A stretch of DNA of 64,000 nt from Bernardetiaceae bacterium (GTDB lineage: Bacteria > Bacteroidota > Bacteroidia > Cytophagales > Thermoflexibacteraceae): positions 8,371 to 72,370 of the forward strand of contig JBIKRY010000001.1 in NCBI GenBank assembly GCA_044348925.1. Reading direction: 5' to 3'. The position numbers and the translations under genes are program-made. Position 1 is the first letter of the stretch. Every line of letters starts with the position of its first letter. The notes beneath the pieces were generated by a model, which did not search any database, was not told the origin of the DNA, and saw only the letters and a list, made by a program, of their open reading frames with translations. Positions 3,354-63,749 of the stretch are shown one piece after another.

Positions 3354-3373
3354 ATAACTTAAACTGCTTTTCA

Positions 3374-3424
3374 GAGTTTTCTTTCCAACCATTTCTGCAC
3401 AGTTTCATCAGCTAAGGCAATTTT
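3374..3424 (-). repeat. Displaced fragment of the leuS 3' coding region; direct repeat of 4829-4880
   Basis: 3383-3424 is identical over 42 nt to 4839-4880, with near-identity for about 10 more nt. The reverse-strand translation [14 protein letters not shown] matches the LeuRS C-terminal region and then stops (RKL*). Confidence 0.85.
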
Positions 3425-3505
3425 ATTCTAATTCATTGATTAAATCCTTTATTTCTTTGTCTGAAAGATTAGTAATTTCTGATTTATTGCAAATAGCAAG
3501 AATCT

Positions 3506-3810: not shown

Positions 3811-4518
3811 CTAAGTATTTTTCAAATGTTCAGCTAATAAAGTTTCCAAATACGCTACGGCTTCGTGGGGAGTAGGAAATTCTTGATTTTGCTCGTCATA
3901 CTCAACTTTAAAACCTGTTTCACCTTTCACAAAAGTTGGTATTGGTATTTTTACACTTACTAAATAATTATTATTTTGTATAACTATGCTATAAGAATTT
4001 TCAACTGGGTGAGTGCCACTAAAAAGAGCTATATAGTTGAGATTTCCAGAACAACGAAATTGATAACATAAAGCAGAGTTACGGCATAATTCGTAAACAA
4101 TAAACATTCTTTTATAAGCATCTTCACCTGAATATTCAATATATTCTTTCATATTATAAAGTGTATTAGCCCAACTATAAATTTTAAAAGCATTTATCCC
4201 AAATTCCAAATAATACTCATATAAATCTGTAAATTGTATATCATCATTTGCAACTAAAATATCCTTAATTTCTACTCTGAAAATTAGCCATTGGTTTATC
4301 AAAAAGTTGATATTTTCTAAATAATCACCTTCATAGGTAGCTAAAACTATATTTTGTTCATAGAAAGAAATTTCTAAATAATTATTGCCATTGCTAAATT
4401 CACTTTTTTTTAGGTCAACTTTCCTATCTCCATTCTCCAATTCAACTGTATAAGTAACTTCTTTGGAATATTCCTTTATTGCTATTCCTTGTTCTTCAAA
4501 CCATTGTTTAGGTATCAT
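3811..4518 (-). CDS. Hypothetical protein (235 aa)
   Basis: A long uninterrupted ORF with no recognisable motif. It lies inside the 1.4-kb segment bracketed by leuS-fragment repeats. Confidence 0.55.
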   Translation of the reverse strand: MIPKQWFEEQGIAIKEYSKEVTYTVELENGDRKVDLKKSEFSNGNNYLEISFYEQNIVLATYEGDYLENINFLINQWLIFRVEIKDILVANDDIQFTDLYEYYLEFGINAFKIYSWANTLYNMKEYIEYSGEDAYKRMFIVYELCRNSALCYQFRCSGNLNYIALFSGTHPVENSYSIVIQNNNYLVSVKIPIPTFVKGETGFKVEYDEQNQEFPTPHEAVAYLETLLAEHLKNT

Positions 4519-4778: not shown

Positions 4779-7751
4779 TTACACCACAACATTCACCACT
4801 TTTCCCACCACAATAATCACCTTTTTCGGAGTTTTCCCTTCCAACCATTTCTGCACAGTTTCATCAGCTAAGGCAATTTTTTCAATTTCTGCAACAGTCA
4901 AATCCAAAGAAAGTGTGAGTTTATGACGCATTTTTCCGTTGATAGAAACAGGATATTCAAAGCTACTTTCTACCAAATAACTTTCGTTACAAGTTGGAAA
5001 AGTGGCATTCATTACACTGTATTCTGCTTGCCAATTTTCGATATTTTGGTTTGGATATTGCAAAGCAAACCACAATTCCTCCACAATATGCGGTGCGTAA
5101 GGTGCAAGAATAACCAACAAATCAGCCAAAATTTGCTTTTTATAGCATTTTTGTTCTGTCAATTCATTCACACAAATCATAAATGTACTCACAGGCGTAT
5201 TGAACGAAAATCTTTCCATATCGTCCTCAATTTTCTTGATAGTTTTATGCAAAGTTTTCAATTCGTCTTTTGTTGGTGTGTCATCTGTAACTCTAAAATT
5301 ACCTTTGTCATCATAGAAAAGTCGCCAAAGTTTCTTCAAAAACTTGTGTGTACCATCAATTCCTTGCATATTCCAAGGCTTAAATTGTTCCAAAGGACCT
5401 AAAAACATTTCATACAACCGCAAAGTATCGGCACTATAACGGTTTACAACATCATCAGGATTTACGACATTATACCACCGTTTCGACATTTTTTCAACCG
5501 TATAACCGCAAACATATTTGCCATCTTCCATTTCAAATTCGGCATCTGCATATTCTGGTCGCCAAGCCTTAAATTTTTCCAAATCAAGCACATCATTCTC
5601 AACAATATTTACATCAACGTGCAATTCTTGAATGTTTGCAGCCTCATATTTATCTTTAAATTTCAGAGAAACAAATTTGTTGCTATCTTTCAATTTATAA
5701 ACAAAATTTGACCTACCTTGTATCATTCCTTGATTTATCAGCTTTTTGAAAGGCTCAACCGTCGAAACATAGCCCAAATCATACAAAAACTTGTTCCAAA
5801 ACCTGCTATATAACAAATGCCCTGTTCCGTGTTCAGCACCACCCACATATAAATCTACGGACTGCCAATAATTTTCTGCCTCTTTTGACACAAATTCTTT
5901 GTCATTTTTATTATCCATATATCGCAACCAATACCACGAAGAACCTGCCCAACCTGGCATGGTGCTAAGTTCGTATTCAAACCCAAGCCCCCCAGCCCCC
6001 GAAGGGGGAGTAACCCCCCAGCCCCCGAAGGGGGAGTTTGACGTTACAGCATCAGTTCCCCCTTCGGGGGTTAGGGGGCTATATTTCCAATTTGTTGCCC
6101 TTCCTAATGGTGGCTCACCGTTTTCTGTTGGTTTATATTGGTCTATTTCGGGCAATAACAAAGGCAATTCTTCATCAGAAAGTAGTTTTGGAATATTATT
6201 TTCGTCAAAATAAATTGGCACAGGTTCACCCCAATAGCGTTGTCTTCCAAAAACCGCATCACGCATTCTATAATTTGTTCTTGCAGTGCCAACTCCTTGA
6301 TTTTCAGCAAATTCAATAGCTTTTAAAATAGCTTCGTCTGTATCCAAACCATTTAAAAACCCAGAATTAACCATTTTACCATATTTTTTATCCGTAGGAT
6401 TTTCGAGTTCTTCCGCACCTTCAATCACATTGATAATTGGTAAATTGTATTGTTTTGCAAAACGAAAATCTCTGTCATCAGAACTTGGCACAGCCATTAC
6501 AACGCCTGTTCCATAACCTGCCAACACATAATCTGCTATCCAAACAGGGATTTTTTCGTTATTAAATGGATTTATGACGTAAGAACCTGTAAATACGCCT
6601 GTCGAAGTTTTGACTTCGGTCATTCTTTCTCTTTCACTACGGTTTGCTGCTTTTTCTACATATACTGCAACGGCTTGTTTTTGTTCTTCTGTTGTCAAAG
6701 TTGCCACCAATTCGTGTTCAGGTGCAATGGCAAGGTAAGTAACGCCAAAAGTTGTGTCAATACGAGTAGTGAAAACTTCTAAATACTCCCCAACGCCAAG
6801 CCCCCCAGCCCCCGAAGGGGGAGTTTTTGACGTTGTTTCGTCAGTTCCCCCTTCGGGGGTTAGGGGGCTAATTTTAAACCTCAATTCTGCCCCCAAACTT
6901 TTTCCTATCCAATTTCTTTGTATTTCTTTGATACTTTCCGACCATTCTATGGTGTCCAAATCATTCAATAATCTTTCAGCGTATGCAGTAATTCGCATCA
7001 TCCATTGACGCATTTTTTTACGTTCTACAGGATGTCCACCTCTTTCAGAAACTCCATCTTTCACCTCGTCATTTGCCAAAACAGAACCCAACGCAGGACA
7101 CCAATTCACAAAAGCATCTGCTAAATACGTTAAACGATATTGCAATAATTTATCAGATTTTTCTTTTGCCGAAAAGTTTTGCCATTCTGTTGCCGAAAAA
7201 ATTTGTGTATCTTCATCACAAGCTGCATCTACATTTGCATTGCCATTTTTCTCAAATTCAGCTACTAAAACACCAATATTTTCTGCTTTTTTGCTTTTAT
7301 TGTTATACCAAGATTCGAAAAGTTGTTTGAAAATCCATTGTGTCCATTTGTAATAATCAGGGCTTGAAGTGCGAATTTCCTTGTCCCAGTCATAACAAAA
7401 ACCTATTTTTCCTAATTGATTTTTGAAAGTGGCAATGTTATTTTCGGTAGTAATTTTTGGATGTTGCCCTGTTTCAATGGCGTATTGTTCGGCTGGCAAA
7501 CCAAAGGAATCGAAGCCCATTGGGTGCAAAACATTAAAGCCTTTTAGACGTTTGTAACGTGCAATAATGTCGGAGGCAATGTAGCCGAGAGGATGCCCAA
7601 CGTGCAAACCTGCCCCAGAAGGATAGGGAAACATATCAAGCACATAATATTTGGGCTTTTGGGTGTTGGTGCTAACTTTATACAGTTGCTTTTTTTGCCA
7701 AAGGTCTTGCCATTTGGTTTCTATGTTTTTGGGTGTATATTCTGCTGACAT
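4779..7751 (-). CDS. leuS: Leucine--tRNA ligase carrying two in-frame palindromic-element insertions
   Basis: It has the class I HIGH signature ([16 protein letters not shown]) and KMSKS (VEKMSKR), plus LeuRS-type architecture and the conserved tail [16 protein letters not shown]. The 990 aa include the foreign peptides [25 protein letters not shown] and [33 protein letters not shown]. Confidence 0.97.
5986..6080. repeat. G+C-rich palindromic element, composite copy (duplicated left arm), in frame within leuS
   Basis: agccccccagcccccgaagggggag occurs twice in tandem, followed by a spacer and the right arm ttcccccttcgggggttagggggct. Confidence 0.9.
6799..6869. repeat. G+C-rich palindromic element, canonical 71-bp copy, in frame within leuS
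   Basis: The arms agccccccagcccccgaagggggag and ttcccccttcgggggttagggggct are reverse complements with 3 mismatches in 25. Each arm holds a ccccc-gaa-ggggg mini-hairpin. G+C is about 63% by my count, in an AT-rich gene. Confidence 0.9.
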
Positions 7752-7963: not shown

Positions 7964-9490
7964 TTAAAAATCTAATCCAGCCATTAAAACCATTATTTTT
8001 TCCATTCTTTTTACCATATCTGTACCTTTGCCACTATAATTATTTGCCATCATAGAAAAAACTAACTTTTCGCCACTTTTTGTCTGCACATACCCTGTAT
8101 AACAACGTACACGAGTCATAGAACCACTTTTTGCACGAATTTTGCCTTCGGCAACAGTATTTTTGCAAAGATTTCGGACTGTTCCACTCTCACCTACCAA
8201 AGGTAGAGATTGATAAAAAACAGGAAAATTAGCTTGCTTTGTTTGCAAGTGCATAATTCGGGTTAATTGTTCGGGCAAAATAGCATTAAAACGAGATAAA
8301 CCACTGCCATCTTCCATAAAAAAACCCTGCAAATTGATGCCTTTATTTTGCAAATACTCGGTAATCACTTGTACTCCTGCCTCCGTTGTTCCCTGCCCTG
8401 TGCGTTGATATGCCAAGATTCTCAAAAAATTTTCGGCATATAAATTAATGCTTTTATGATTGGTAACTCGTATAATTTCGGATAACGGTTCTGAATAGGT
8501 TGTGTAAAATTTTATGCGTTTAAGCGTAGAAATATCCTTTATTTTAGTAAACTCTTGGTAGGTAGTCGGAAATTGTAAAACTGTTATCTTATTGTAATAC
8601 AGTAAGTTATGCAAACTTGTAGCACAATATAAAGGCGGATTTGGAATTGCCCCTTTGAGTATAAAAGCTGTTTCATTGGGCGGAATAGTTCCCGAAAGAT
8701 TGCGAATATAGGTATCTGGTGAGCCATAAATTAGACTATTATCACCCGAGTTTTTTGCACCTGTCAAAATATTATTATAAAATGTTAAATTTTCTATAGG
8801 TGGATACACATTTTGAATACTTGTAGCATCACCCTCTTTATTTCCACTTTTCAAACGAATGTAGTAAAGATTTTCATGAAAAGATAAGCCATAACTACCT
8901 GCACCATAGCCACTTGCAACATCTTCCCAAACCCAACGATTATGCACTGCCTTATTATCAAAAATACTTTCGTCGGCAATAATACTACCTGTAATAGTTT
9001 TGATGCCTTGTTTCTCGATGGCATAAATCCACTCACAAAGCAATTTTTCTATGTTTTCGATAGCCAATGTAGGGTCTCCGCCACCTTTGATATAAATATT
9101 TCCATACAAAATGCTATCTTTAATTTCCCCATCATATTCCAAAATAGTTTCAAAACGAAAATCTTTGCCTAATAAATTTAGAGCAGTAGAGGTGCTAATT
9201 GTTTTCATTACCGAAGCTGTAGAAATACTTTGTTTAGCATTTTGGGATAGCAAAATACTATCTGCCGAAGCATACATAGCACAAAAACCAAAAGTTGCGT
9301 TTTGCATATCGGTTTCGGTCATCAACAAAGCTAAATGCTTTTGTAAAGAATCTTTAGCAACATTTCGCAAAGAATCTCGTAAGGAGGTTTTCAAAAAAAC
9401 AGTTTTTAAAGAATCTGCTACAGCTATTTTTTGGGCAAAGGAAATTTGCGTAAGACAAAGAAAGGAAAGAAAAAGAAAAATAATTTGCAT
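7964..9490 (-). CDS. dacB: D-alanyl-D-alanine carboxypeptidase/endopeptidase (PBP4, peptidase S13 family)
   Basis: It has an SxxK motif (ASVMK), and its length and overall pattern fit PBP4. An N-terminal signal peptide is present. I prefer the ATG at 9490 because the TTG at 9532 lies inside the serS terminator hairpin. Confidence 0.8.
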   Translation of the reverse strand: MQIIFLFLSFLCLTQISFAQKIAVADSLKTVFLKTSLRDSLRNVAKDSLQKHLALLMTETDMQNATFGFCAMYASADSILLSQNAKQSISTASVMKTISTSTALNLLGKDFRFETILEYDGEIKDSILYGNIYIKGGGDPTLAIENIEKLLCEWIYAIEKQGIKTITGSIIADESIFDNKAVHNRWVWEDVASGYGAGSYGLSFHENLYYIRLKSGNKEGDATSIQNVYPPIENLTFYNNILTGAKNSGDNSLIYGSPDTYIRNLSGTIPPNETAFILKGAIPNPPLYCATSLHNLLYYNKITVLQFPTTYQEFTKIKDISTLKRIKFYTTYSEPLSEIIRVTNHKSINLYAENFLRILAYQRTGQGTTEAGVQVITEYLQNKGINLQGFFMEDGSGLSRFNAILPEQLTRIMHLQTKQANFPVFYQSLPLVGESGTVRNLCKNTVAEGKIRAKSGSMTRVRCYTGYVQTKSGEKLVFSMMANNYSGKGTDMVKRMEKIMVLMAGLDF

Positions 9491-16195: not shown

Positions 16196-16374
16196 AAAAA
16201 AAAAGATAAAATACTTTTTAAAATTTATATTTGTAACTTTATTTGCAAAACTTGCGTAGTAAAAACTAAATTATAATAAGTACACAAAATTTATTGTATA
16301 GAAAAGTGGTTTACAAAAAACTTGTTTGTACTTTCGCAAAAAATTAAAATTTTTAAAAACATAACTTTTATACT

Positions 16375-19078: not shown

Positions 19079-19822
19079 ATGAAAATTTATAAAATTATTT
19101 TAATTGTCATTTTTGCAAATATCTGTGCAAAATCTTATGGGCAATCTCTTATTGCAGGTATTCCAAGTGCAGATGTAGTTGGTAAAAACCACTTAGAACT
19201 CACTCACGAAAGCCAAATAAATACGTGGAAAAATCCCGACAAGTTTTATTGGTCGGGATTCAACTTTCTTACATATGGTTTGGGCAATGGATTGGAAATA
19301 GGGGTAATGGCAATTAATTTAACCAATCAAAATATGGACAACCTAACTACAGGTTTTGGTTTTAAAAAAGTCCATCAGATTTTTAAAAATTCTTGGGAAA
19401 AAGGAGAGGTAAAACTTACTTTTGGACAGAGTGTGCTTTTTTCTTTACAAAAGCCTGAAGTTGGCGGTTGGGCATATAGCCACGCAAGTTTTCGTATGCC
19501 AATACTCAAAACCCGTCTAACAGGAGGTCTTACCTACGGTTCTCCGTTATTTTTTGGTATGCCAACAGTTACCAATAGTGATGGCACGAAATTAGAAGTA
19601 GATAAGGCAGTGCTTTCTGCTATGTTTGGTTTTGAGCAACCAATTAGCAAAAAATTTAGTATTATCGCAGATTGGTATTCTGGCTCTCACGATTTGGCTG
19701 CGTTGATTACGGCTTTTCAATGGAATATCGGACACCAAACACTCATTGTAGGCTATAAAACAAAAAATAATTTGCCAATGAGAGATGGATTTATTATTAC
19801 CGAACTTATGATTCATTTTTAA
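19079..19822 (+). CDS. Putative outer-membrane protein, function unknown
   Basis: It has a signal peptide (…AKSYGQ) and the C-terminal ELMIHF. Confidence 0.55.
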   Translation: MKIYKIILIVIFANICAKSYGQSLIAGIPSADVVGKNHLELTHESQINTWKNPDKFYWSGFNFLTYGLGNGLEIGVMAINLTNQNMDNLTTGFGFKKVHQIFKNSWEKGEVKLTFGQSVLFSLQKPEVGGWAYSHASFRMPILKTRLTGGLTYGSPLFFGMPTVTNSDGTKLEVDKAVLSAMFGFEQPISKKFSIIADWYSGSHDLAALITAFQWNIGHQTLIVGYKTKNNLPMRDGFIITELMIHF

Positions 19823-19851: not shown

Positions 19852-19947
19852 AAAACCCCTACAAAGTAGCTAAACTTTGTAGGGGTTTATTATACAATTT
19901 TAAAAATTCTTAATTTATTAATGGTTTACGTTTAAACAAAATACGAC
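19852..19947 (-). repeat. att-like direct repeat, copy 1 (degenerate fadB-like 3' end plus stem-loop)
   Basis: The stem-loop is cccctacaaagt-agcta-actttgtagggg (19856-19885). ttaatttattaatggtttacgtttaaacaaaatac (19910-19944) is a degenerate copy of the last 37 nt of the CDS ending at 22761. Confidence 0.8.
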
Positions 19948-19955
19948 CTCAAAAA

Positions 19956-20285
19956 CTACTTTTTCTTAGCTTCTTCCCAAACCCATAAACGCAAAATACG
20001 ACCTTCATAATAGTCTATTTTTACATATTTTCCTGTCTTAATAACATTACCTTCCCCCTCATACCCTAATGCCTTGTGCCTAATAAAATTATTTCGGTAA
20101 CTAAACTTTACTTTTCTCACTGTAAAAGTTTCCTCTTTTCTGCCATTTCCTTTCGTGAAGTTAGTTACTTTGTCTTCAATAGTTGCCCATTTTTTAGCAT
20201 TTTTTTTGAATTCTAAGTAATCTGATGCCACAAGTAGTGTGAATATACTTCCCCATGTTACACAGAATGCAATAAAAAATATCAT
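19956..20285 (-). CDS. Small membrane-anchored hypothetical protein
   Basis: The ATG at 20285 opens MIFFIAFCVTWGSIFTLLVA, a single TM segment, followed by a basic soluble domain. The track start at 20300 is a TTG. Confidence 0.5.
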   Translation of the reverse strand: MIFFIAFCVTWGSIFTLLVASDYLEFKKNAKKWATIEDKVTNFTKGNGRKEETFTVRKVKFSYRNNFIRHKALGYEGEGNVIKTGKYVKIDYYEGRILRLWVWEEAKKK

Positions 20286-20293
20286 CTTAGCTA

Positions 20294-20446
20294 TTAGCAA
20301 TATTTTATAGTGAGTTTTGTTGGTATTAGTTTTTCTACTTTAACTCGCATGATAGAAATCGTACCTACTAAAAACATTATACACAGAAATATAGGAATAG
20401 AAGAAACTATACCATTATTCTCAAAATCATAATACTGCACCCACAT
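20294..20446 (-). CDS. Possible 50-aa membrane micro-ORF (below the ORF-track size cut-off)
   Basis: My translation is MWVQYYDFENNGIVSSIPIFLCIMFLVGTISIMRVKVEKLIPTKLTIKYC*. It ends 8 nt before the next ORF start on the same strand. Confidence 0.25.
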   Translation of the reverse strand: MWVQYYDFENNGIVSSIPIFLCIMFLVGTISIMRVKVEKLIPTKLTIKYC

Positions 20447-20475
20447 GAAAATTATTGTTTAGACTTTCACAAACG

Positions 20476-20577
20476 AAAAAAACCTTACAAAGTTTTTGAA
20501 AACTTTATAAGGTTTAAATAAATTAAACTAGGATATTTCTTAATTTCTCAACGGTTTCCCTTTAAACAAAATACTAT
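20476..20577 (-). repeat. att-like direct repeat, copy 2
   Basis: 20540-20576 is identical over 37 nt to 22761-22797, the fadB-like stop codon and last codons. Next to it is the stem-loop accttacaaagttt...aaactttataaggt. Confidence 0.85.
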
Positions 20578-20584
20578 TATTTAA

Positions 20585-22660
20585 TTATAAAATTGCCAAA
20601 GTAGGAGTAGTAATTTTATCTTTCTGATATACTTGCTGAATGAGATATAGAGCATATTCTATTTGGTTTCGGTGCGAAACTTTAAATTCTACCTCTCCTG
20701 TTCCCCAATGACCTATTTTAGAAACATCACGACATAATTTATCTTTATCTTCTATTTCCGTAAAAGCCAAGTTAATACACAATCTTAAACCTGATCTTAA
20801 AGGTACAATACTAACCAAACTACGCCCTCGTTTGTAGTCAATAGTTTGTTTACGTATTTCCTCTTTTATGTGGTTATCAATTTGTAAGATTTTTGTTTGT
20901 AATATTTCAAATATTTCTAAGGTATTACCTTCTAAATAATCTGCATTATGCATAGTTTCAAGTGTATAACTTTCATTATTATCCATAGAAATAGATTTCG
21001 GAATAGTATTTTCTCCAAAATATGACCAAATACTAATAGCTTTTTCTGCTAACCACTCAGCCCTTTGTTTAATTTCATTAACTGTCCAATTATTTACTTC
21101 AAAATCGGTAAAATAATTATTTAAACCAATTTTACTATCTTTAAAAAGGTCTTTCTTTTGTGTGAAAGGTTTATTAGATAATTCGCTATTGTATTTTGTA
21201 AGTGTCAAATTACCAATATTATCTAACCACATTTCATGAGCATATTCATAGTGTTCTCCCAAATCATTTTTCCACAAATCATTCAAGGTTTGTGGCATAA
21301 TATGCTCTATACTACAATCTACAAGGTTAGTTTGTTCTTTGTGATTAAAAGCCTCCTCAATAGTTTCTAAAATAAGTTTTGTTCTTATTTTTTTCTCTCC
21401 TCCACCATACATTTTTGCTTCTAAGAAATTGTGTCTAAATTCTGCATCTCTTGGATATTCTTTGTTTTGTAAAACTAATCTTACCCCTTCTTTTAAATCA
21501 TTTGTAGATTGTTTTTTAGCCTGCCTATATAGTTCAGGAAATAATTTATTTAACTCTCTACCTTGTATATTACAAATAATTCTGCGTATCATAAAATTTT
21601 CTACCAATTTGAAAATTTCAAGAAAATTATCTATTGACAAAGTCCCATTATCATATTCTTCGTAACAATTCAAAAAGAAAGGATAAGAGGTTGTAACTTG
21701 TAGTTGATTAATTCTTGCAATGGCTTTGGCTATTTTTTTATTCGGTTCATTACTAACATCTAATAATCTACTATAATAGCCTGAAAATTTAGCTAAATCT
21801 TTTAGTTTTTCCTCTGCTTGGGCTTTGTCAATAATATCTTTGAGTTTAAAATATACATCTGCTTCTTTCACAAAACCTTCATCTTTAATCAAATAATGAC
21901 GTACGCAATCTTGTAGCTTATTATCTAATTTACTTTGCATAGGTAGCCAATATTTTTCGTATATTGTATCATGCTTATCAGTGTGAATACGCATGAAGAA
22001 ATAGTTCCTAATCAAATCACTTTGAGTTAGTGAAAGCCCTGTGGCATTTAAACTTTCAAAAACTAAATAAGGGTCATCACCTTTGTCCATTTCTAAGACA
22101 ATACCTACCATAGACAAATAACCAGTGATGATTTCTTTAAAGCTATTTAGATTAATTTGATTAGCTCGTATTTTTGTGTAGAAGAAGTTATATGCTTTGT
22201 TTATTGCATTATCCTCGTTAGTCTTTTCTTTTTTAACTAATCCGTAGTAGCTTTTTCTATCGATTTGTGTAAGTTGTAATTTATAAAAATCTTGTCCTTC
22301 CTTCCGTTTATTGGTGAGATACAATTCTGTTATATCATCAGCTAAATTATTGTCGTTTTGACCTAGTGCTAAATCACGCATAACAATCAATAAAATAGAC
22401 AAAGTTGTGTACCTTTGCTGCCCATCAATCAAAAGAAATTTTGGTACACCTTGCGGTACAGAAACCACTTGCATAGTAACCAAAGAACCAATAAAATGAG
22501 TTCTTCGTTTTTCTGCTTCATCATTATAAAGTCCTATTAGGTCTTTCCATAATTTTTCCCAATGCTTTTTTTCCCAACTGTAAGACCTTTGAAATAAAGG
22601 GATAACATATTGTTTTGTTCCTTCTAAGATATGCTGAAAAATTGTTTGTGATGCTTGCAT
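20585..22660 (-). CDS. GmrSD-like type IV restriction endonuclease family protein (DUF262 N-terminal, DUF1524 HNH-like domain) with an extra C-terminal domain
   Basis: The DUF262 hallmark is YVIPLFQRSYSWEKKHWEKLWKDL plus LIDGQQRYTT. The DUF1524-type motif is CSIEHIMPQ...WLDNIGNLTL. About 130 further residues follow. Confidence 0.8.
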   Translation of the reverse strand: MQASQTIFQHILEGTKQYVIPLFQRSYSWEKKHWEKLWKDLIGLYNDEAEKRRTHFIGSLVTMQVVSVPQGVPKFLLIDGQQRYTTLSILLIVMRDLALGQNDNNLADDITELYLTNKRKEGQDFYKLQLTQIDRKSYYGLVKKEKTNEDNAINKAYNFFYTKIRANQINLNSFKEIITGYLSMVGIVLEMDKGDDPYLVFESLNATGLSLTQSDLIRNYFFMRIHTDKHDTIYEKYWLPMQSKLDNKLQDCVRHYLIKDEGFVKEADVYFKLKDIIDKAQAEEKLKDLAKFSGYYSRLLDVSNEPNKKIAKAIARINQLQVTTSYPFFLNCYEEYDNGTLSIDNFLEIFKLVENFMIRRIICNIQGRELNKLFPELYRQAKKQSTNDLKEGVRLVLQNKEYPRDAEFRHNFLEAKMYGGGEKKIRTKLILETIEEAFNHKEQTNLVDCSIEHIMPQTLNDLWKNDLGEHYEYAHEMWLDNIGNLTLTKYNSELSNKPFTQKKDLFKDSKIGLNNYFTDFEVNNWTVNEIKQRAEWLAEKAISIWSYFGENTIPKSISMDNNESYTLETMHNADYLEGNTLEIFEILQTKILQIDNHIKEEIRKQTIDYKRGRSLVSIVPLRSGLRLCINLAFTEIEDKDKLCRDVSKIGHWGTGEVEFKVSHRNQIEYALYLIQQVYQKDKITTPTLAIL

Positions 22661-22704
22661 AAAATAAATTTATATTTTTTGATGTATCTTACAATTATAA
22701 ACAA

Positions 22705-22738
22705 AAAACCTACAAAGTTGCTAAACTTTGTAGGTTTT
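22705..22738 (-). terminator. Stem-loop terminator of the fadB-like gene (part of att-like repeat copy 3, 22703-22797)
   Basis: cctacaaagtt-gcta-aactttgtagg is flanked by A-run and T-run. It lies 22 nt after the stop. Confidence 0.6.
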
Positions 22739-22760
22739 TATTACACAATTTTTAAAATTA

Positions 22761-25166
22761 TTAATTTCTCAACGGTTTCCCTTTAAACAAAATACTATGT
22801 ATTCTCTCCAAAGTTTTCTTTTCGCCACACAATGACAAAAAGGCTTCTCTTTCGAGGTCAAGCAAATATTGTTCAGAAACCAAAGTCGGATAAGATAAAT
22901 CACCACCAGCCATAACGTAAGCCAATTTTTTAGCAATTAAAGCATCGTGTTCAGAAATATAATTACCCATTTTCATACCTACAATACCTGCGTGGAACAA
23001 TGCCAAAGCCGTTTTTCCGTGAACTTTAATATCTGTACGTTGAACAGGTTGAGAATAACCAGCCTCATATAAAGCTAAAGCTGTTTCTTTTGCCTCTGCA
23101 ATTAAACGCATACGGTTCATTGTAATAGGGCTATCTTTGTGCAAAACGCCATTTGCCATAGCTTCCGCCGCTGACATAGAAACTTTTGCAGTCGCAATCG
23201 TCATAAACATTTCTTGCAAACGGTTCAATTCTGCATCACCTGTAGCATAGCTATCAGAAGCACGCAAAACTAATTCTTTTGTGCCACCTCCCGCAGGAAT
23301 TACACCCACACCAAACTCTACTAAGCCCATGTAAGTTTCTGGGTGAACTTGCACTTTATCGCAATGCAAAGTTGTTTCGCAACCACCACCCAAAGCCAAA
23401 CCTGCCAAAGCCGAAACCACAGGAATTGACGAATAACGCAAACGCATCATTGTGTTTTGGAATTGTGCAATCATCATATTTACTTCGTCCCACTCTTGCT
23501 CACCTGCATACATAAACAACATTGCCAAGTTTGCACCTGCTGAGAAATTAGGACTTTCATTGCCAATTACCAAACCTTTGAAGTTTTCCTCAGCTTTTGC
23601 AACCGCAGTTGTCAAACCTTCTAAAACTTCTGCACCAATAGAATTCATTTTTGAATGGAACTCTAAACCTAAAACTCCATCTCCTAAATCAAATAATGTG
23701 CTACCTGCATTGCCCCAAACTTTGTTAGATTTACGCAAAGTATCTAACAAAATAAAGTCTTCTGTACCTGCAACTACTTTGTAAGATTTTGTAGGAATAT
23801 CGTAATAATATTGTTTGCCATTTTCTAATTTATAGAAACTTGTATGACCTGCTGCCACCATTTCTTTTACCCAAGCTGCTACTTTATGACCTGCTGCTTC
23901 AATTTTTGTAACAGTTTCTGCCACACCTAACAAATCCCACGTTTCAAAAATACCCACTTCCCAACCAAAACCAGCTTTAATTGCTTGGTCAATTCTAAAT
24001 AATTCGTTAGCAATTTCAGGAATACGATTTGCAGCATATTGGAAAATATCATAGTGCATTTTGCGATAAAATTCTCCTGCTTTGTCTGTTGCATTGATTA
24101 ATAAAGGCAATTTCTTTTTCACATCATCAATATCTTTCACAGCTTCCAAAGCCTTAAAACTTGCTTTCACTCTTGGTTTATATTCCAAAGTTTGCATATC
24201 TAAGGTTAAAATTTCGCCTTTGTCGCCTTTGCTACGGTCTTTCATGAAGAAACCTTTACCTGTTTTGTCGCCCAACCACTTGTTTTCCATCAACTTTTCA
24301 ACAATTTTTGGCAATTTTAATCTTTCTCTACTTTCGTCATGTGGCACTGCTGCATACAAGTTTTTCGCAACATTCACCGTTGTATCCAAACCAACAACAT
24401 CAGAAGTACGGAAAGTTGCAGATTTTGCGTGTCCAATCACTGTACCTGTCAATAAATCAGCCTCGTCAATCGTTAAACCCATTTCTTCAACCAAGTGAAT
24501 AGTAGAAATTAACGAGTAAACTCCTACACGATTGGCAATAAATGCAGGCGTATCTTTACACAAAACAGTTTCTTTACCTAAAAATAAATCTCCGTAGTGC
24601 ATCAAGAAATCAACTACATCTTTGTCTGTTTTTTCTGTTGGGATAATTTCCAACAAACGCATATAACGTGGCGGATTGAAAAAGTGTGTACCGCAGAAAT
24701 GTTTTTGGAAATCTTCACTTCTGCCATCAAGCATCAAATGAATTGGAATACCCGAAGTGTTAGACGTGATTAAAGTTCCTTTTTTGCGGAATTTCTCTAC
24801 TTGTTCAAAAACTTGTTTTTTAATGTCTAATCTTTCCACAACTACCTCAATAACCCAATCGTAATCAGCAATTTTTTTCATATCATCAGTAAAATTGCCT
24901 AATTTGATACGACTTGCGTGTTTAGCATTATACAAAGAAGCTGGTTTTCCTTTTAAAGTGTTTTGAAAAGCCTCATTTACAATTCTATTACGAACTGCTG
25001 GGCTTTCTAAGGTTAAACCTTTTGCTTTTTCGGCATCATTTGTGTCATTTGGCACAATGTCGAGCAATAAAACTTCAACGCCAATGTTAGCGAAGTGGCA
25101 CGCAATGCGTGAACCCATAATTCCAGAGCCTAAAATGGCTACTTTTTTGATGATTCTATTTTTCAT
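22761..25166 (-). CDS. Fused 3-hydroxyacyl-CoA dehydrogenase / enoyl-CoA hydratase (FadB-like)
   Basis: The N-terminal Rossmann motif is VAILGSGIMGSRIA and the C-terminal half is crotonase-like (ALAGLALGGGCE). The ATG at 25166 (MKNRIIKKVAILG) is preferred. Confidence 0.9.
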   Translation of the reverse strand: MKNRIIKKVAILGSGIMGSRIACHFANIGVEVLLLDIVPNDTNDAEKAKGLTLESPAVRNRIVNEAFQNTLKGKPASLYNAKHASRIKLGNFTDDMKKIADYDWVIEVVVERLDIKKQVFEQVEKFRKKGTLITSNTSGIPIHLMLDGRSEDFQKHFCGTHFFNPPRYMRLLEIIPTEKTDKDVVDFLMHYGDLFLGKETVLCKDTPAFIANRVGVYSLISTIHLVEEMGLTIDEADLLTGTVIGHAKSATFRTSDVVGLDTTVNVAKNLYAAVPHDESRERLKLPKIVEKLMENKWLGDKTGKGFFMKDRSKGDKGEILTLDMQTLEYKPRVKASFKALEAVKDIDDVKKKLPLLINATDKAGEFYRKMHYDIFQYAANRIPEIANELFRIDQAIKAGFGWEVGIFETWDLLGVAETVTKIEAAGHKVAAWVKEMVAAGHTSFYKLENGKQYYYDIPTKSYKVVAGTEDFILLDTLRKSNKVWGNAGSTLFDLGDGVLGLEFHSKMNSIGAEVLEGLTTAVAKAEENFKGLVIGNESPNFSAGANLAMLFMYAGEQEWDEVNMMIAQFQNTMMRLRYSSIPVVSALAGLALGGGCETTLHCDKVQVHPETYMGLVEFGVGVIPAGGGTKELVLRASDSYATGDAELNRLQEMFMTIATAKVSMSAAEAMANGVLHKDSPITMNRMRLIAEAKETALALYEAGYSQPVQRTDIKVHGKTALALFHAGIVGMKMGNYISEHDALIAKKLAYVMAGGDLSYPTLVSEQYLLDLEREAFLSLCGEKKTLERIHSILFKGKPLRN

Positions 25167-25185
25167 TTTTTTATATAATTGTTTA

Positions 25186-25622
25186 TTTTTTACCGCCAAG
25201 TATGTTAAGGTCGCAAAGTTTTTTTCTTTGCGTTTCTCTGCGTAATCTCTGTAACCTCTGCGGTAAAAAGTTTAACCGCAAAGTACGCAGAGATTACGCT
25301 AAGGAAAAAACTTTGCGAACTTCTGCTTTTTGTTTTTTTACCGCCAAGTACGCTAAGGTTACGCAGAGTTATGCCAAGAAAAAACTTTGCGACCTTTGCG
25401 TAATCTTTGCGACCTCTGCGGTTAATCTTTTTTTACCGCTAAGTACGCTAAGGTTACGCAGGGTTACGCCAAGAAAATATAATTTTTGCGACCTTTGCGT
25501 AATCTTTGCGACCTCTGCGGTTAATCTTTTTTTACCGCTAAGTACCCTAAGGTTACGCAGGGTTACGCCAAGAAAATATAATTTTTGCGACCTTTGCGTA
25601 ATCTTTGCGACCTCTGCGGTTA
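25186..25622. repeat. Tandem array of palindromic units (99-bp period) filling the whole intergenic region
   Basis: tttgcgacctttgcgtaatctttgcgacctctgcggttaatc... recurs at 25385, 25484 and 25583, an exact 99-nt spacing. More degenerate units lie at 25186-25384. The two halves of each unit are imperfect reverse complements around taatcttttttta. Confidence 0.9.
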
Positions 25623-25629
25623 TATTTTT

Positions 25630-26007
25630 TTACAAACCATTTACAAATCTACGCAACCCATTTTTCATTAACAACGAATGAAAATTAAGTAAATATCCTA
25701 ACTTACAGCCTGATAATTTTAGATAATTTATAATTTGAGCCTCGTGGATAGGGTGAATTGCTTCTACAACTTTTAATTCTATGATAACTTTGTTAGCCAC
25801 CACCAAATCTGCCCGATAAGCAACTTCCATTTTCACACCTTTATAAATTAAAGGCAACTCTTTTTCTTTTTCTACTTCTAATCCTCTTTTTGTGAGTTCG
25901 TAATATAGACATTCTTGGTATGCTTTTTCTAACAAACCAACACCTAATGCTCTATGTACTGTAATAGCACAATCTACTACAATTGTTCCGATTTCATTTT
26001 CTGTCAT
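25630..26007 (-). CDS. GxxExxY protein (PD-(D/E)XK-fold family)
   Basis: It has GVGLLEKAYQECL (G-x-x-E-x-x-Y), DLVVANKVIIELK and the C-terminal GYLLNF, the family signature as I recall it. The start is MTENEIG at 26007. Confidence 0.8.
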   Translation of the reverse strand: MTENEIGTIVVDCAITVHRALGVGLLEKAYQECLYYELTKRGLEVEKEKELPLIYKGVKMEVAYRADLVVANKVIIELKVVEAIHPIHEAQIINYLKLSGCKLGYLLNFHSLLMKNGLRRFVNGL

Positions 26008-26614: not shown

Positions 26615-27007
26615 TTATTTGTTAAATAATTTCTTAAAATCAAAGGTAAGCATAATGCCTCCAAATAATGAAATAAAACTTGTAAAAGCTAACAAAGCTA
26701 ACAATAACCAAGGCACATAAATAGAAAATAACCACCCCAAAAGCAACCAAGCAATTAAAGCAGCAGTTAAGTACATACCCACAAACACAATACCTGCAAA
26801 GCCTGCTATTATCAATAAAACTCCTATTGCTATGGAATACCACTTTTTCTTTTTTATTTTCTTTACTTTTCTGATTTTGTAAGAACTTACAATTTGTAGA
26901 TTTGCAGTTTTACTATCTTGTAATAGAATATTTGCCACTTGCATACTATAACAAGGCACAAAAACCATAAAAATACTTAGTAATAAAATTAAAAAACGGA
27001 TATACAT
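26615..27007 (-). CDS. Small membrane protein, tandem paralogue A
   Basis: The start is MYIRFLILLLSIFMVFVPCYSMQVA at 27007. A signal-like N-terminus is followed by a KKIKKKKW patch and then about 3 TM segments. Confidence 0.6.
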   Translation of the reverse strand: MYIRFLILLLSIFMVFVPCYSMQVANILLQDSKTANLQIVSSYKIRKVKKIKKKKWYSIAIGVLLIIAGFAGIVFVGMYLTAALIAWLLLGWLFSIYVPWLLLALLAFTSFISLFGGIMLTFDFKKLFNK

Positions 27008-27014
27008 AGCTGTT

Positions 27015-27482
27015 TTAGTTATTATTTTTTTGTAACTTTTCTTGTTCCTCTTTTCTACCTTTTCGTAATAATCTATCTCCAAAAAATAAAGAAATTATGC
27101 TACCAACTCCTAAAAATGCAGCTAATACAAGTAAAAAACCTGATGCTTGTTGTGTTGAATAAGTACCAACAATTAACCACATCAAAGCAAATCCCATTGC
27201 ATATAGTAAAGCAACAATACCTAAGACTATTAATACAGTTCCCCAAATTTTCTTTTTATTCTTTTTTTTGAGAATTGCGTTTATAAGGAATGCAAGCCCA
27301 ATAACAAGCCAAAAAATACTTAAAACTATATCATTATTTTTTACTTTTAATACTTTGTAAACTTTTGCTGCAACTTTACTTGTTACAACCAAAGCTTCAT
27401 GATTTGTTGCCACCTGCATACCATAACAAGGCATAAAAATCATAAAAATACTTAATAATAAAATTACAAAACGGATATACAT
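27015..27482 (-). CDS. Small membrane protein, tandem paralogue B
   Basis: It opens MYIRFVILLLSIFMIFMPCYGMQVA, has a KKKNKKKIW patch and TM segments. Its 5' end and leader are near-identical at DNA level to paralogue A. Confidence 0.6.
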   Translation of the reverse strand: MYIRFVILLLSIFMIFMPCYGMQVATNHEALVVTSKVAAKVYKVLKVKNNDIVLSIFWLVIGLAFLINAILKKKNKKKIWGTVLIVLGIVALLYAMGFALMWLIVGTYSTQQASGFLLVLAAFLGVGSIISLFFGDRLLRKGRKEEQEKLQKNNN

Positions 27483-27496
27483 AGCTGTTTTAGTTG

Positions 27497-27928
27497 TTAT
27501 TTTTTAGGAGTTTCATACTTGTCTTCAAAAACTTGTTCCCAAGTCAAATTTTCTACTTTGCTATCTGTTTCCATTTCGGTTTCTGCCTCATCTTTTGCAC
27601 GAGCAAAAACCTTTTCCCAAATACTTTCTATATATTTTCTATTCAAAGAAGGTCGCAATTCTTGAATATCCAAAATTTCATACCTTGCATTTTTTATGGT
27701 TGCTGCCCAAGACGAACTTCGTTTTTCGGGTTGCGAAAACCACTTAATCAAATGTTTTATAAGCCTTATCAACTGACTTGCTAAGGCTTTTTTATGTTCT
27801 TGCGACATACTTTCTAACAAATAATTGATACCAATTTCCGCCTCATCAAATTCTGCATTTTCCAAAGCCCTGCGAATCTCGAGGGCTGTTTCATAATCTG
27901 ATGTAATGATATTGTTCCAATTTCTCAT
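27497..27928 (-). CDS. DUF29 domain protein
   Basis: LIRLIKHLIKWFSQPEKRSSSWAATIKNARYEILDIQELRPSL matches the DUF29 pattern (LLKW.YQP..RS.SW..TI...R.EI). Confidence 0.7.
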   Translation of the reverse strand: MRNWNNIITSDYETALEIRRALENAEFDEAEIGINYLLESMSQEHKKALASQLIRLIKHLIKWFSQPEKRSSSWAATIKNARYEILDIQELRPSLNRKYIESIWEKVFARAKDEAETEMETDSKVENLTWEQVFEDKYETPKK

Positions 27929-35138: not shown

Positions 35139-36560
35139 TTATAAAGTATCCAAAAAACCCAAATAATATGTTTTATCCGACACTACATTATACCTGTTTC
35201 CATTTCCATCATTTGCACTAATCACCAAACGAAAATTATAAATATAATTTTCGCAAGACGCATCTCCATCAATTTCTAAAGAAAAATGTTGTGCTTGGTT
35301 GTTTGTAACTTCTTTAAAATCAAGTATAGGAATAATAGTTGATGTATGTGTCAAAGTTACTTTATATTTTTGTTCTCCTGCTTTTTGGGTTATCCAATTA
35401 GACCATTTTACTTTTTTGGTATCTAAATGATAGGTAGCAATTTTTTCTAATTTAACATTGTCTATGTATAAAGTTTTGCCACTACTATTTTTGATATTAA
35501 ACCTTATTTGCATATTTTTATTAGCAATGGTAGGAATATTTGTAGGCATATTTACCACACTTTTCAAGTTTTCTCGATATGGTTCTCCATATTTGCTATT
35601 CATATCTTCCCCTTCGGTATTTGTTTCAAAATTCCATTTTTCAGAACTATACAAAAACTTACCATTGTAAATATTATTGGTGTGAAAAGATAATGGATTT
35701 GTAATTTTTTCTTCACCTGCCTTGTTATTGGTGCTGTCAAAATCTGTATTTTTGCTTATTGGGGTATTTTCTCTAAAATTACTGTCTGCCACCACAGGCT
35801 TAAACGTAATTTGCTCAATATAGGCTAACTTTTCTTTCTGTGTATCTACATAACTAAGCATTGTATAATATTTGTAGGAAAAAGTTACCAACAATAACAA
35901 AGAGGCAGCTATCGAAATTTCTTTAAAATATTTTTTCCAAAACCCTATTTTTGGCTTTTCTATCTCTGCTTTTTCAGTTTCTTTTTCTGCTTTTTCAGTT
36001 TCTTTTTCTGCTTTTTCAGTTTCTTTTTCTGCGATTTTAGTTTCTTTTTCTGTAATTTCAGTTTCTTTTTCTGCAATTTCAGTTTCTTTTTCTGCAATTT
36101 CGGGGCTTATTTTTTCAAGTTCAAACTTATTTTCAAGTTCAAGAGTTTTGTCTTTGCTATGTAGTTCTTTCCATTGTCTAAACTCTTCGAGAGTTTGTAT
36201 TGGGCTATTTATCAAAAAAGCTGCAAAAGATAATGTAATTTCTTTTGGTGCTACTGTTATACCTTGAAAAATCTTTGCAATAGACTTTGCTTTATTCTCT
36301 ACACTTCGTTCTAATTCAAGGAGAACTTTATCTAAAGAAACATTGCCTTTTGACAACACAAAAAAAACTTTGATTTTTTCTATTTTTTCAGGCTCACTAT
36401 TTTCTTCCAATACACGAATACAATACCTGTGGATAGTTGTAACAGTAATTTTTGTAGTTCTAAATTCTTTAGGAATGATAGTTACAGGAATTTGTTCAGA
36501 GAAATTTCGTAAATAGATAGCAAATCCTTTTTGGAGTTCTTCGCGTTTGAGCTTTGTCAT
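35139..36560 (-). CDS. Single-pass membrane protein with an (E-K-E-T-E-x-A)n repeat linker, function unknown
   Basis: The ATG at 36560 opens MTKLKREELQ. An N-terminal soluble domain is followed by seven heptad repeats AEKETEI/K, one TM segment (ISIAASLLLLVTFSY) and a C-terminal domain. The track start at 36632 runs into a repeat element. Confidence 0.65.
   Translation of the reverse strand: MTKLKREELQKGFAIYLRNFSEQIPVTIIPKEFRTTKITVTTIHRYCIRVLEENSEPEKIEKIKVFFVLSKGNVSLDKVLLELERSVENKAKSIAKIFQGITVAPKEITLSFAAFLINSPIQTLEEFRQWKELHSKDKTLELENKFELEKISPEIAEKETEIAEKETEITEKETKIAEKETEKAEKETEKAEKETEKAEIEKPKIGFWKKYFKEISIAASLLLLVTFSYKYYTMLSYVDTQKEKLAYIEQITFKPVVADSNFRENTPISKNTDFDSTNNKAGEEKITNPLSFHTNNIYNGKFLYSSEKWNFETNTEGEDMNSKYGEPYRENLKSVVNMPTNIPTIANKNMQIRFNIKNSSGKTLYIDNVKLEKIATYHLDTKKVKWSNWITQKAGEQKYKVTLTHTSTIIPILDFKEVTNNQAQHFSLEIDGDASCENYIYNFRLVISANDGNGNRYNVVSDKTYYLGFLDTL
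35963..36100 (-). repeat. In-frame 21-bp tandem repeat encoding EKETE(I/K)A units
   Basis: ctgctttttcagtttcttttt and variants are repeated about 7 times head to tail. Confidence 0.85.
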
Positions 36561-36597
36561 AGGAAAAATAGTTAAAGTTGAATAGATAATGTAAGTT

Positions 36598-36732
36598 GCG
36601 TAGTAGTACGGAACTCCAGTTCCGTACATCATTTATTGCATAAGTAAAACACTTTAGACCCAAATAAATAGTTTTTTAGGTAAAACAAACTTGCTTATAC
36701 GACTTGTACGTAGCTGGAGCTACGTACTACGC
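36598..36732. repeat. MITE-like element with hairpin-forming terminal inverted repeats
   Basis: The left end is gcgtagtagtacggaactccagttccgtac and the right end is gtacgtagctggagctacgtactacgc. The ends are inverted repeats. The internal mini-hairpins differ by compensatory changes (GGAA/TTCC versus GTAG/CTAC). Confidence 0.7.
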
Positions 36733-60963: not shown

Positions 60964-61271
60964 AATTTGGATTAAGTTAAAATGAATAAAAGTTACATAT
61001 TTTTTAAACAGTTGCAAAGATACGTTCTATTTTGGCACAATTCCAAAAATAGCTTTAGATAAGTATCTTTTTTGGTAAAATAAATTTTAGTATTTTGCCA
61101 AAAAATCAATAAAGATTGTGATTATCTACTTTAATTTATGGTTTTTAAGTTATTGAAAATCAAATAGTTAATTCACTTGCTAAAATAGCTAAATAGTTTT
61201 TTACCAAGCTATATAAATTATGGTATTATTTTGGCAATAAAACATAGTAAGTCTTATCCAACAATATTCCT

Positions 61272-61544: not shown

Positions 61545-61714
61545 AGAATAGGACATTGAGGGTAAAGAAGGTTTGTAGCATAGACTTCGTTCTGATGCCA
61601 CAAACCTTTTTACTTTTGAAGGGTTTAGAAATTTTTGTTGCAATTTTAGAAATTTGCTTGTATTGTAGGCTAACTTTGTCAAAATTTTATTCTTTACCTA
61701 AAATCTATTCTCTA

Positions 61715-63654: not shown

Positions 63655-63742
63655 TATACGCTTGTCAAGGTCTTCGACCATTGCCAACGTATAAAATAAT
63701 TTCTTTTATATGATTAAGGTCTTCGACCATTGCCAACGTATA
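63655..63742. repeat. REP-like units of the tacgcttgtcaagg...ttgccaacgta family (1.7 copies)
   Basis: tatacgcttgtcaaggtcttcgaccattgccaacgtata is followed by the partial repeat aaggtcttcgaccattgccaacgtata. The flanks are shared with 16655-16763 but the central hairpin differs. Confidence 0.8.
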
Positions 63743-63749
63743 AATTATT

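Follow-up and report, generated by a model that had tools for sequence, protein, structure and literature searches.

Repeated fadB gene ends suggest serial insertion of accessory genes behind a housekeeping gene in an uncultured Cytophagales-like bacterium

Organization of the fadB locus

The 64-kb stretch of DNA analyzed here (the window, to which all coordinates refer) derives from an uncultured Cytophagales-like bacterium and contains a fadB-like gene (hereafter fadB) that is followed by further copies of its own 3′ end. Read along the minus strand, the order is fadB, repeat copy 3, a 691-aa gene, copy 2, two small open reading frames (ORFs) and copy 1, after which a 247-aa gene is encoded convergently on the plus strand (Table 1). 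In the ORF list, fadB spans 22761-25199, and gene callers use the upstream TTG start; the true start is likely the methionine of MKNRII at 25166. The three copies of the fadB end and terminator all lie where the initial annotation of this sequence had placed them. Copies 2 and 3 have in common 38 exact bases of the minus strand, ATAGTATTTTGTTTAAAGGGAAACCGTTGAGAAATTAA (20540-20577 = 22761-22798), which code for the final 12 codons of fadB and its stop codon; the exact match reported initially is thus confirmed, its length being 38 rather than 37 nt. Copy 1 had been described as degenerate in the coding part while sharing the spacer and hairpin with copy 3, and a 93-base ungapped alignment that takes in gene end, spacer and hairpin (19852-19944 versus 22703-22795) indeed puts it at 86% identity to copy 3. 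Its core is identical to the fadB end at 30 of 35 positions, the five changes including non-synonymous ones, and it retains the fadB reading frame, encoding RILFKRKPLIN* where the fadB end encodes SILFKGKPLRN*. The copies are accordingly graded by decay, from 38/38 identity to the live end in the core of copy 2 to five changes in 35 nt in copy 1, which is the oldest displaced fadB end. Copy 3 we read as the newest unit, which came together with the 691-aa gene.

Every repeat unit closes with a 15-16-bp hairpin and a T run, that is, with an ordinary intrinsic terminator (folding z-scores of the three hairpins: -3.6, -2.7 and -5.7); the hairpin of copy 1, hp1, is bidirectional and also terminates the convergent 247-aa gene. 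Core and hairpin sub-patterns (35 and 26 nt) gave no match in 100 dinucleotide-preserving shuffles and occur in the window only at the three copies. The segments that separate the copies bear no relation to one another. The larger one is a 2,221-bp insertion bounded by two copies of the 38-nt core and carries the 691-aa gene, for which the Pfam and PADLOC matches agree with the earlier description as a GmrSD-like restriction gene. Outside the species, its nearest homolog (in L097) is 87% identical at the nucleotide level, with the homology ending within ~10 nt of the stop codon, and no fadB end is found beside that homolog. The C-terminal tails of GmrSD homologs vary too much to show whether the junction truncated the gene. 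Base composition gives the cassettes no clear foreign signature (GC content 28-32% in the cassettes, 30-33% in the flanks and 34-43% in fadB).

Table 1 Features of the fadB locus in the 64-kb window
Feature	Position	Strand	Composition or evidence
fadB-like gene (3-hydroxyacyl-CoA dehydrogenase/enoyl-CoA hydratase), 801 aa	22761-25166	-	Pfam 3HCDH_N, 3HCDH, ECH_1; NCBIfam FadB models; translation
Inferred crossover region in fadB	22794-22809	-	Breakpoint mapping; frequencies of palindromes and dif-like sites
Copy 3	22703-22798	-	Functional fadB end (22761-22798), 21-nt spacer, terminator hairpin hp3 (22704-22739)
GmrSD-like type IV restriction gene, 691 aa	20585-22660	-	Pfam GmrSD_N (2.6e-35), GmrSD_C (1e-25), DUF5655; PADLOC Orf5, HEC-06, mREase_IV
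Copy 2	20476-20577	-	Displaced fadB end (20540-20577), spacer, terminator hp2 (20480-20515)
Split 149-aa membrane-protein gene with two transmembrane segments	19956-20446	-	50-aa ORF (20294-20446) and 109-aa ORF (19956-20285), frameshifted
Copy 1	19852-19947	-	Displaced fadB end (19910-19944), spacer, terminator hp1
Convergent 247-aa gene, function unknown	19079-19822	+	Right flank; limit of the variable segment in this species; alike in six samples

A site without GmrSD in close relatives

Exact-protein look-ups retrieved the same three-repeat arrangement in contigs from six conspecific samples, and because all six show an identical locus, the arrangement is fixed within the species. One of these contigs, L082, matches the window, three repeats included, at 99.9% identity across 13.3 kb, whereas two others from short assemblies (L081 and L086) break inside the 38-nt core, presumably because the repeat is longer than the assembler k-mer and not through population heterogeneity. 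Close relatives were taken from the 90%-identity cluster of the window fadB. Since their fadB genes are 91-96% identical to that of the window at the nucleotide level but the genes neighboring fadB only 70-88%, these relatives are different species of one genus.

Two of them bear directly on the history of the locus. In L093 and L094, the fadB end, the terminator and a gene for a 149-aa membrane protein are contiguous, with GmrSD absent, and the block lines up colinearly with copy 2, hairpin 2 and both small ORFs of the window. The 149-aa ortholog, intact and directly behind fadB in these genomes, is matched by the split ORFs of the window (BLASTP 7e-15). The gene end is conserved between L093 and the window, as are the stem, in which changes are compensated, the 5′ untranslated region (UTR) and both termini of the protein (N-terminal MW..YYD, C-terminal GKYV.I.YYEG.ILRLWVWEEAKK). 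Given this colinearity, copy 2 was once a true fadB end, or was copied from a genome in which it was one, and L093/L094 represent a site empty of GmrSD, of the kind whose existence in related genomes the initial annotation had proposed to look for. By the same comparison, the split ORFs are a frameshifted copy of the former immediate neighbor of fadB. The ~0.5-kb cassette with small membrane ORFs, initially taken for a separate cargo, thus dissolves into the two halves of one gene that was formerly native behind fadB.

Different cargos occupy the same position across the genus

Upstream synteny is largely kept among the close relatives (thioesterase, small variable genes, GxxExxY gene, fadB). 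The left flank, formed by the GxxExxY gene and fadB, is conserved in six genomes, whereas the right flank differs between species, and the content behind fadB varies across the seven related genomes, apart from a two-gene cargo common to L095 and L098. In addition to the 149-aa gene of L093/L094, we found behind fadB a 264-aa gene of unknown function (L092), a 188-aa gene with a gene for a 1005-aa ATPase of the KGGVGR/Sll1717 type matching PADLOC PDC-M28B/C (L095; the same pair in L098), a truncated trypsin-like gene (L096) and a 207-aa gene (P0001 contig, from a sample shared with one window-type contig). The alternative cassettes that had been envisaged for this site therefore exist, with a second fadB end on their distal side in L095 and L098.

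The second fadB end of L095, a copy of 94 nt, lies 16 nt past the cargo stop codon and is followed by another terminator allele. This copy begins at -93 (the last base of the fadB stop codon being -1), ends one base beyond the stop codon and matches the live end at 96% identity. The four substitutions all fall at third codon positions and are synonymous, which would be expected of a sequence that had once been a working allele of the gene end. In L098, a degenerate gene end and half a hairpin stand immediately behind the cargo, which is 80-90% identical to that of L095 at the nucleotide level, a divergence about equal to that of fadB. The distal end of L098 is closer to window copy 1 than to the fadB of L098 itself (none of 1000 shuffles reaches the score), the two having in common the TTAATAAA signature and the CCTACAAAGTTT stem. 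The same old displaced end thus forms the distal border in two species, with different cargo inside.

The two genomes with the common cargo also contain a tract of 167 nt (L095 12401-12567 versus L098 4851-5017) that is 100% identical against a background of about 88% (80-90%). From a left edge 6 nt short of the end of the fadB stop codon, the tract crosses the terminator and extends over the first 57 nt of the first cargo gene. It represents either a patch of recent gene conversion or an element under strong constraint. Sliding-window identity across the seven genomes revealed no obvious mosaic boundary near the fadB 3′ end.

Directly behind the fadB terminator of L096 (11141-11200), a short direct fragment resembles the core from -37 (TAGTTTTGTTTAA); after it, an 18-mer identical to part of window copy 1 (AAACCATTAATAAATTAA) stands in inverted orientation. 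An inversion may have left this arrangement, but the local alignment falls short of significance (p about 0.04-0.06).

Beyond the genus, 80 loci of species-representative genomes from other genera (fadB at most 69% identical at the amino-acid level; Roseivirga, Emticicia, Runella, Chitinophaga and others) carry no duplicated fadB coding end within 10 kb downstream in either a strict or a sensitive search, which shows that the gene-end duplication is lineage-restricted. A pattern scan of metagenome contigs matched only a sister species (L089-L091). Its fadB is 82% identical at the nucleotide level and is followed, on the opposite strand, by an AbiL-like ATPase and a DUF3226/TOPRIM pair, with no fadB-end duplication. 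We considered the sister species as a further empty site and rejected it, synteny differing on both sides. With these genes included, the cargo behind fadB is mostly defense-like (GmrSD, the PDC-M28-like ATPase, the AbiL-like ATPase with TOPRIM and the trypsin-like gene).

A GxxExxY gene (PD-(D/E)XK, TIGR04256) stands directly upstream of fadB in all genomes with variable cargo and displaced ends, and the sister species, in which there is no duplication, has none at that position. The co-occurrence may be a coincidence or may be linked to the recombination activity.

Four of five breakpoints cluster 35-38 nt before the fadB stop codon

Homology to fadB starts at -38 in window copy 2, at -35 in window copy 1, at -36 at the distal end of L098 and at -93 in the distal copy of L095. 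A fragment behind the 149-aa gene of L093 shows the reciprocal side, matching fadB from -62 to -36 and then ending (p about 0.008). Four of the five breakpoints consequently lie 35-38 nt before the stop codon, two of these four resting on remnants with p about 0.01. The left edges at -35 to -38 adjoin three different cargo ends at 0-11 nt from their stop codons: copy 2 starts 7 nt past the GmrSD stop codon, the distance is 8-11 nt for the 109-aa ORF, and the stop codon of the 1005-aa ORF overlaps the junction. Because each adjoins a different cargo end, the three junctions cannot be copies of one junction, and the cluster favors a defined crossover site.

The breakpoints fall in a perfect 5-3-5 palindrome, AATAC ATA GTATT, a degree of symmetry reached by 0.23% of window positions. 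They also fall in the 6-nt center of an 11-6-11 segment, GGAGAGAATAC-ATAGTA-TTTTGTTTAAA (22782-22809; fadB -49 to -22), which matches 15 of the 22 arm positions of Escherichia coli dif and is among the seven best such sites on both strands of the 64-kb window.

No recombinase domains among the window ORFs scanned or in the related cassettes

The initial annotation had stated that no integrase, transposase or excisionase lies near the cassettes, and our searches agree: Pfam domains of integrases, transposases, resolvases and excisionases are lacking in the 49 window ORFs scanned, which reach to ~60 kb and several of which have no Pfam match at all. The scanned set comprised 44 of the 55 ORFs of at least 120 aa and five shorter or trimmed ORFs near the repeats; the remainder were mostly ORFs overlapping larger ones on the opposite strand, together with the free-standing ORFs 60349-61017 and 61556-63607. 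The families represented are housekeeping or unknown, including leuS, serS, prs, a RecN-like SMC protein, coaE, a DEAD helicase and a sigma factor. Likewise, no recombinase domain was found in the cassettes of the relatives, and none of the seven related loci has an integrase at the fadB site. The window contains no tRNA or tmRNA gene, and at the repeats the Rfam search returned only sub-threshold miRNA noise. Neither the fadB end, searched for in degenerate form at the amino-acid level, nor the copy-1 variant has a match in viral contigs, and no phage or provirus attP came to light.

Serial insertion at a fixed point and its alternatives

We read the three repeats as one live and two displaced fadB ends, which arose as foreign blocks entered serially at a fixed point ~36 nt upstream of the stop codon, and assign this reading a probability of about one half. 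Each incoming block would consist of the last ~36 nt of fadB with the stop codon, a spacer, a fadB-type terminator, and a promoter with one or more cargo genes. At the fixed point, recombination would fuse the resident fadB, which would stay intact, to the gene end that the block brings, and the former gene end with its terminator would be pushed downstream, directly behind the cargo stop codon. The comparisons show that such blocks were added next to fadB in succession and that the former end was displaced each time. The ancestral fadB end was copy 1; a block of copy 2, terminator 2 and the 149-aa membrane-protein gene entered next, an arrangement that still stands behind fadB in L093/L094; and a block of copy 3, terminator 3 and GmrSD entered on top. 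A site-specific recombinase is favored because different cargos join at the same few nucleotides and because one fragment shows the reciprocal side of the exchange. Most likely it would be supplied in trans by a gene located elsewhere, perhaps for a tyrosine recombinase, possibly of the host Xer type, so that the cassettes would be cis-acting passengers following the logic of cis-mobilizable elements (CIMEs), of integrative mobile elements exploiting Xer (IMEX) or of integrons.

Tandem site-specific integration at one gene 3′ end, as first proposed for this locus, thus finds partial support in the successive insertion scars and the clustered breakpoints, its site-specificity being inferred. 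That related genomes hold empty and alternatively filled sites also argues against an arrangement merely inherited unchanged by all relatives. Two details of the original proposal have to be given up. A hairpin-targeting mechanism does not fit, since the breakpoints fall within the coding region of fadB, ~36 nt ahead of its stop codon, and not at the hairpin, and the cassettes are not free-standing elements with arms of their own, the blocks beginning with chromosomal-type fadB terminators. Because each block begins with a fadB terminator homologous to those of other genomes, the inserted DNA looks like whatever lay behind fadB in a donor. As the cargos across the genus are mostly anti-phage genes, the fadB site appears to work as a defense hotspot.

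Several observations weigh against a site-specific mechanism. The search for a recombinase, confined in this genome to the 64-kb window, found none, and the palindrome and the likeness to dif were both recognized post hoc and are weak leads. Inspection of the cargo-side sequence to the left of the three distal cores showed no shared half-site. At least one event bypassed the proposed crossover point, because the distal copy of L095 starts at -93 and has no break at -36; repeat length accordingly varies from 38 nt in the window to 94 nt in L095. The remnants in L093 and L098 are only modestly significant against each genome's own fadB (p about 0.01). The spacers and terminators of the blocks have homologs among the chromosomal fadB terminators of other genomes (hp3 corresponding to hp1, hp2 to the L093 terminator), and DNA copied from a donor chromosome through the fadB anchor accounts for this no less well than would an element with its own attP. 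The perfectly identical 167-nt tract of L095 and L098, whose left edge is not at -36, suggests that ordinary homologous recombination is active across the junction of fadB and cassette. A displaced fragment of leuS, unrelated in sequence (see below), hints at a general rather than a site-specific process, and the six conspecific samples, identical at the locus, give no direct sign of excision, turnover or current mobility.

Many of these points would be explained if homologous recombination alone had built the locus, the main alternative, which we regard as possible, though with odds clearly below even. A donor segment of fadB 3′ part, terminator and cargo would circularize or loop out between direct repeats and would integrate through one RecA-dependent crossover within the fadB end, or through two, with the displaced end as right arm; the shared segment would be duplicated and the cargos stacked with no dedicated recombinase. 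The lack of recombinase domains in the tested window ORFs and in the related cassettes agrees with such a process, as do the homology of the block terminators to chromosomal ones, the unequal repeats of 38 and 94 nt, and the exclusively synonymous differences of the L095 copy, which are those expected of an allele from another genome. The 167-nt patch over the fadB/cassette junction agrees with it too, and so do the leuS 3′ fragment displaced behind a 1.4-kb insert and the two adjacent genes with a duplicated leader described below. A published model for rhs genes invokes just such circular intermediates and direct repeats of varying length (PMC2935791). What this account leaves unexplained is that three cargo ends, those of GmrSD, the 109-aa ORF and the 1005-aa ATPase, are joined at -35 to -38 and that the L093 fragment ends at -36: homologous recombination can propagate junctions that already exist, but it does not generate fresh cargo junctions at one and the same nucleotide, so that the initiating illegitimate event would need to be repeated in one spot for every cargo. 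Furthermore, a repeat of 38 nt comes close to the minimum length for efficient exchange by RecA. Site-specific and homologous recombination may both have operated here.

Alternatively, an island, prophage or integrative and mobilizable element bearing an integrase specific for the fadB 3′ end may have lost its integrase and transfer genes, leaving CIMEs in tandem. Such decay agrees with the three-step accretion model (PMC5704250), with direct repeats of the 3′ end of the target gene and with clustered breakpoints. We nevertheless consider it unlikely: the cargo ORFs lie 0-11 nt from the repeats and within ~100 nt of the terminator, so that cassettes of 0.6, 2.2 and 3.7 kb leave no room for a lost integrase; none of the seven related loci has an integrase at the fadB site; no viral contig carries the fadB-end sequence; and the 0.6-kb cassette is the native neighbor of fadB in L093. 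That the repeats are not insertion scars at all, being a dispersed terminator or a repeat of the repetitive extragenic palindromic (REP) type, or else a local tandem duplication of the fadB end, is very improbable. The units do end in ordinary intrinsic-terminator hairpins, and other dispersed repeat families are present in the window. The core and hairpin patterns, however, occur at three places only in 64 kb, and across the 98 loci compared the core is restricted to fadB ends or to positions distal to fadB cargo. The repeat contains 12 fadB codons in frame, copy 2 and its flank are orthologous to the true fadB end and neighbor of another genome, and the segments between the copies are unrelated to each other. 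Uniqueness in the window, colinearity with L093 and the positions of the core in the 98 loci effectively refute an origin by dispersed terminators or local duplication, and with it the objection, raised at the outset, that the segment might simply be a dispersed terminator repeat.

Comparison with known systems

A close parallel is offered by rhs/cdiA arrays, in which, as at the fadB locus, a conserved gene is followed by displaced 3′ fragments, each nearly identical to the upstream gene, with the newest fragment on the gene, older and degenerating ones further downstream, and no integrase. For rhs genes, displacement of C-terminal ends has been attributed to homologous recombination that proceeds through circular intermediates and leaves direct repeats of unequal length (PMC2935791). 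Dissociated 3′ fragments lie downstream of fadB (window copies 2 and 1 and the distal copies of L095 and L098), and a shared ancestral end, the copy-1 type of the window and L098, is displaced by different inserts. Unlike rhs, fadB encodes a housekeeping enzyme of beta-oxidation and not a polymorphic toxin, and the same 12 amino acids are encoded each time, so that the product is unchanged. The payload is an independent defense gene with its own promoter instead of a toxin tip with an immunity gene, and the breakpoints fall within about 4 nt, whereas rhs repeats vary widely in length.

In the accretion model, integration is followed by decay to a CIME that keeps attL and attR and by the next integration into the att site at the gene end (PMC5704250). 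The family of CIMEs and integrative and conjugative elements (ICEs), with ICESt1/ICESt3 at fda as examples, resembles the fadB locus in the att-like direct repeats of the target gene 3′ end, in the integrase-less elements that have both repeats, and in tandem stacking through a repeat containing the gene end; here the flanking repeats are fadB-end repeats of 38 nt (exact), 93 nt (86% identical) and 94 nt (L095). It differs in that no integrase-bearing partner turned up at the fadB locus in the window ORFs to ~60 kb, the seven related loci or the viral contigs, and in that the fadB cassettes hold one or two genes with no room for decayed mobility genes and carry a chromosomal-type fadB terminator in place of element arms. 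Tandem accretion of integrative elements at a gene 3′ end is reportedly also found in the ssrA islands of Dehalococcoides.

In IMEX and pdif modules, integrase-less DNA is integrated by host XerC/D at dif-like sites, often in tandem. The fadB cassettes likewise lack a recombinase of their own, are stacked at one short site and have breakpoints that fall in an 11-6-11 segment. In contrast to those modules, the fadB site lies inside a coding sequence and is not the terminus dif, the dif match is weak and post hoc, and the cargo side has no XerC-like arm. The true dif of this genome and its Xer genes lie outside the window. Integrons and clusters of attC sites lacking integron-integrases (CALINs) share with the fadB locus compact, co-oriented, mostly single-ORF cassettes, each paired with a repeat unit of ~95 nt, the newest cassette nearest the fixed site and no recombinase inside the cassettes. 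The fadB repeat, though, is a gene end plus an intrinsic terminator without the attC structure R″/L″-L′/R′, and its cassettes have their own upstream regions. By inspection, the repeat units contain no GTTRRRY pair, and the scanned window ORFs include no IntI; a reading of the units as integron attC sites is ruled out by structure, namely a coding gene end and perfect terminator hairpins with T runs.

Defense hotspots in the core genome that are free of mobile genetic elements (MGEs), such as cDHS1 and cDHS2 of Pseudomonas aeruginosa, have been described with their mode of assembly stated as an open question (PMC10250203). As at these hotspots, a core gene marks the fadB site, and the content is mostly anti-phage, differs between close relatives and belongs to no MGE group. 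Only the left flank is conserved at fadB, however, the cargos are single small systems, and the insertion scars are preserved. The locus fails defining features of each family compared: a partner integrase, attC and IntI, toxin tips, cargo-side dif arms and a conserved right flank.

A bolder interpretation, which we put forward tentatively and regard as rather improbable in its full form, is that of an integron-like system without an integrase in cis, in which the 3′ end of a housekeeping gene is the recombination site. Each anti-phage gene would travel on a small circle with a replacement fadB end and terminator, a recombinase acting in trans, possibly host Xer on the dif-like segment, would insert them at -36, and the cassettes would be stacked, swapped and shared across the genus.

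Many anti-phage systems reside in core hotspots devoid of mobile-element genes, and how these are filled is acknowledged to be open (PMC10250203). At fadB, the scars have been kept, the junctions can be read to the nucleotide, and ancestral, empty and alternatively filled states are available in relatives, making the mechanism testable as a choice between a site-specific recombinase in trans and recombination through circular intermediates. The fadB scars may thus show how integrase-free defense hotspots are built, and they supply a search signature for integrase-free acquisition sites: a short in-frame copy of the 3′ end of a conserved gene behind one or two accessory genes.

Other repeats in the window

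A second displaced gene end belongs to leuS (4779-7751, minus strand). A 67-nt 3′ fragment of this gene (3368-3434 versus 4824-4890, or -111 to -45 from the stop codon), with a core of 48 nt that is 96% identical, lies 1.4 kb downstream of leuS and starts right after a stop codon; the insert holds a 235-aa ORF of unknown function (3811-4518) and broken small ORFs. On the integron-like reading above, several essential genes could be docking sites of this kind. Within the uninterrupted 990-aa leuS ORF itself, two copies of a GC-rich palindromic repeat family, CCCCCAGCCCCCGAAGGGGGAG...CCCCCTTCGGGGGTTAGGGGG, are placed in frame, reminiscent of in-frame palindromic insertion elements. The family is represented at 5978-6086, 6791-6875 and 50202-50235 in this genome of 31% GC, and a partial motif match was seen by eye in L097 around 3200-3235.

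Upstream of fadB, between its start and the GxxExxY (PDDEXK_3) gene, a 99-nt tandem unit is present in 3.1 copies with 94% match, together with degenerate copies (25179-25633), an array that ORF finders read as a 159-aa ORF on the plus strand. L093 has one stretch of the unit (8906-8979), in L098 it is repeated over 1818-2430, and its copy number seems to vary among relatives. Further upstream, a 99-nt direct repeat that is 93% identical (26932-27030 and 27407-27505) comprises the 5′ UTR and the first 25 codons of two adjacent genes. By its sequence, the duplicated leader, with a hydrophobic N terminus and a cysteine at residue 19, resembles a lipoprotein signal peptide, and the mature parts of the two proteins are unrelated. 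These leader-sharing cassettes sit in the variable block upstream of fadB, which differs between relatives.

The AAGGTCTTCGACCATTGCCAACGTA motif forms a tandem pair at 63667-63702 and 63716-63751, recurs beside the distal fadB-end copy of L095 (about 16240-16270) and looks like a dispersed repeat common to several species. Finally, a 21-nt tandem repeat of about 10 copies (35936-36145) lies inside a 497-aa ORF with no Pfam match (35139-36632) and is probably a low-complexity coding repeat.

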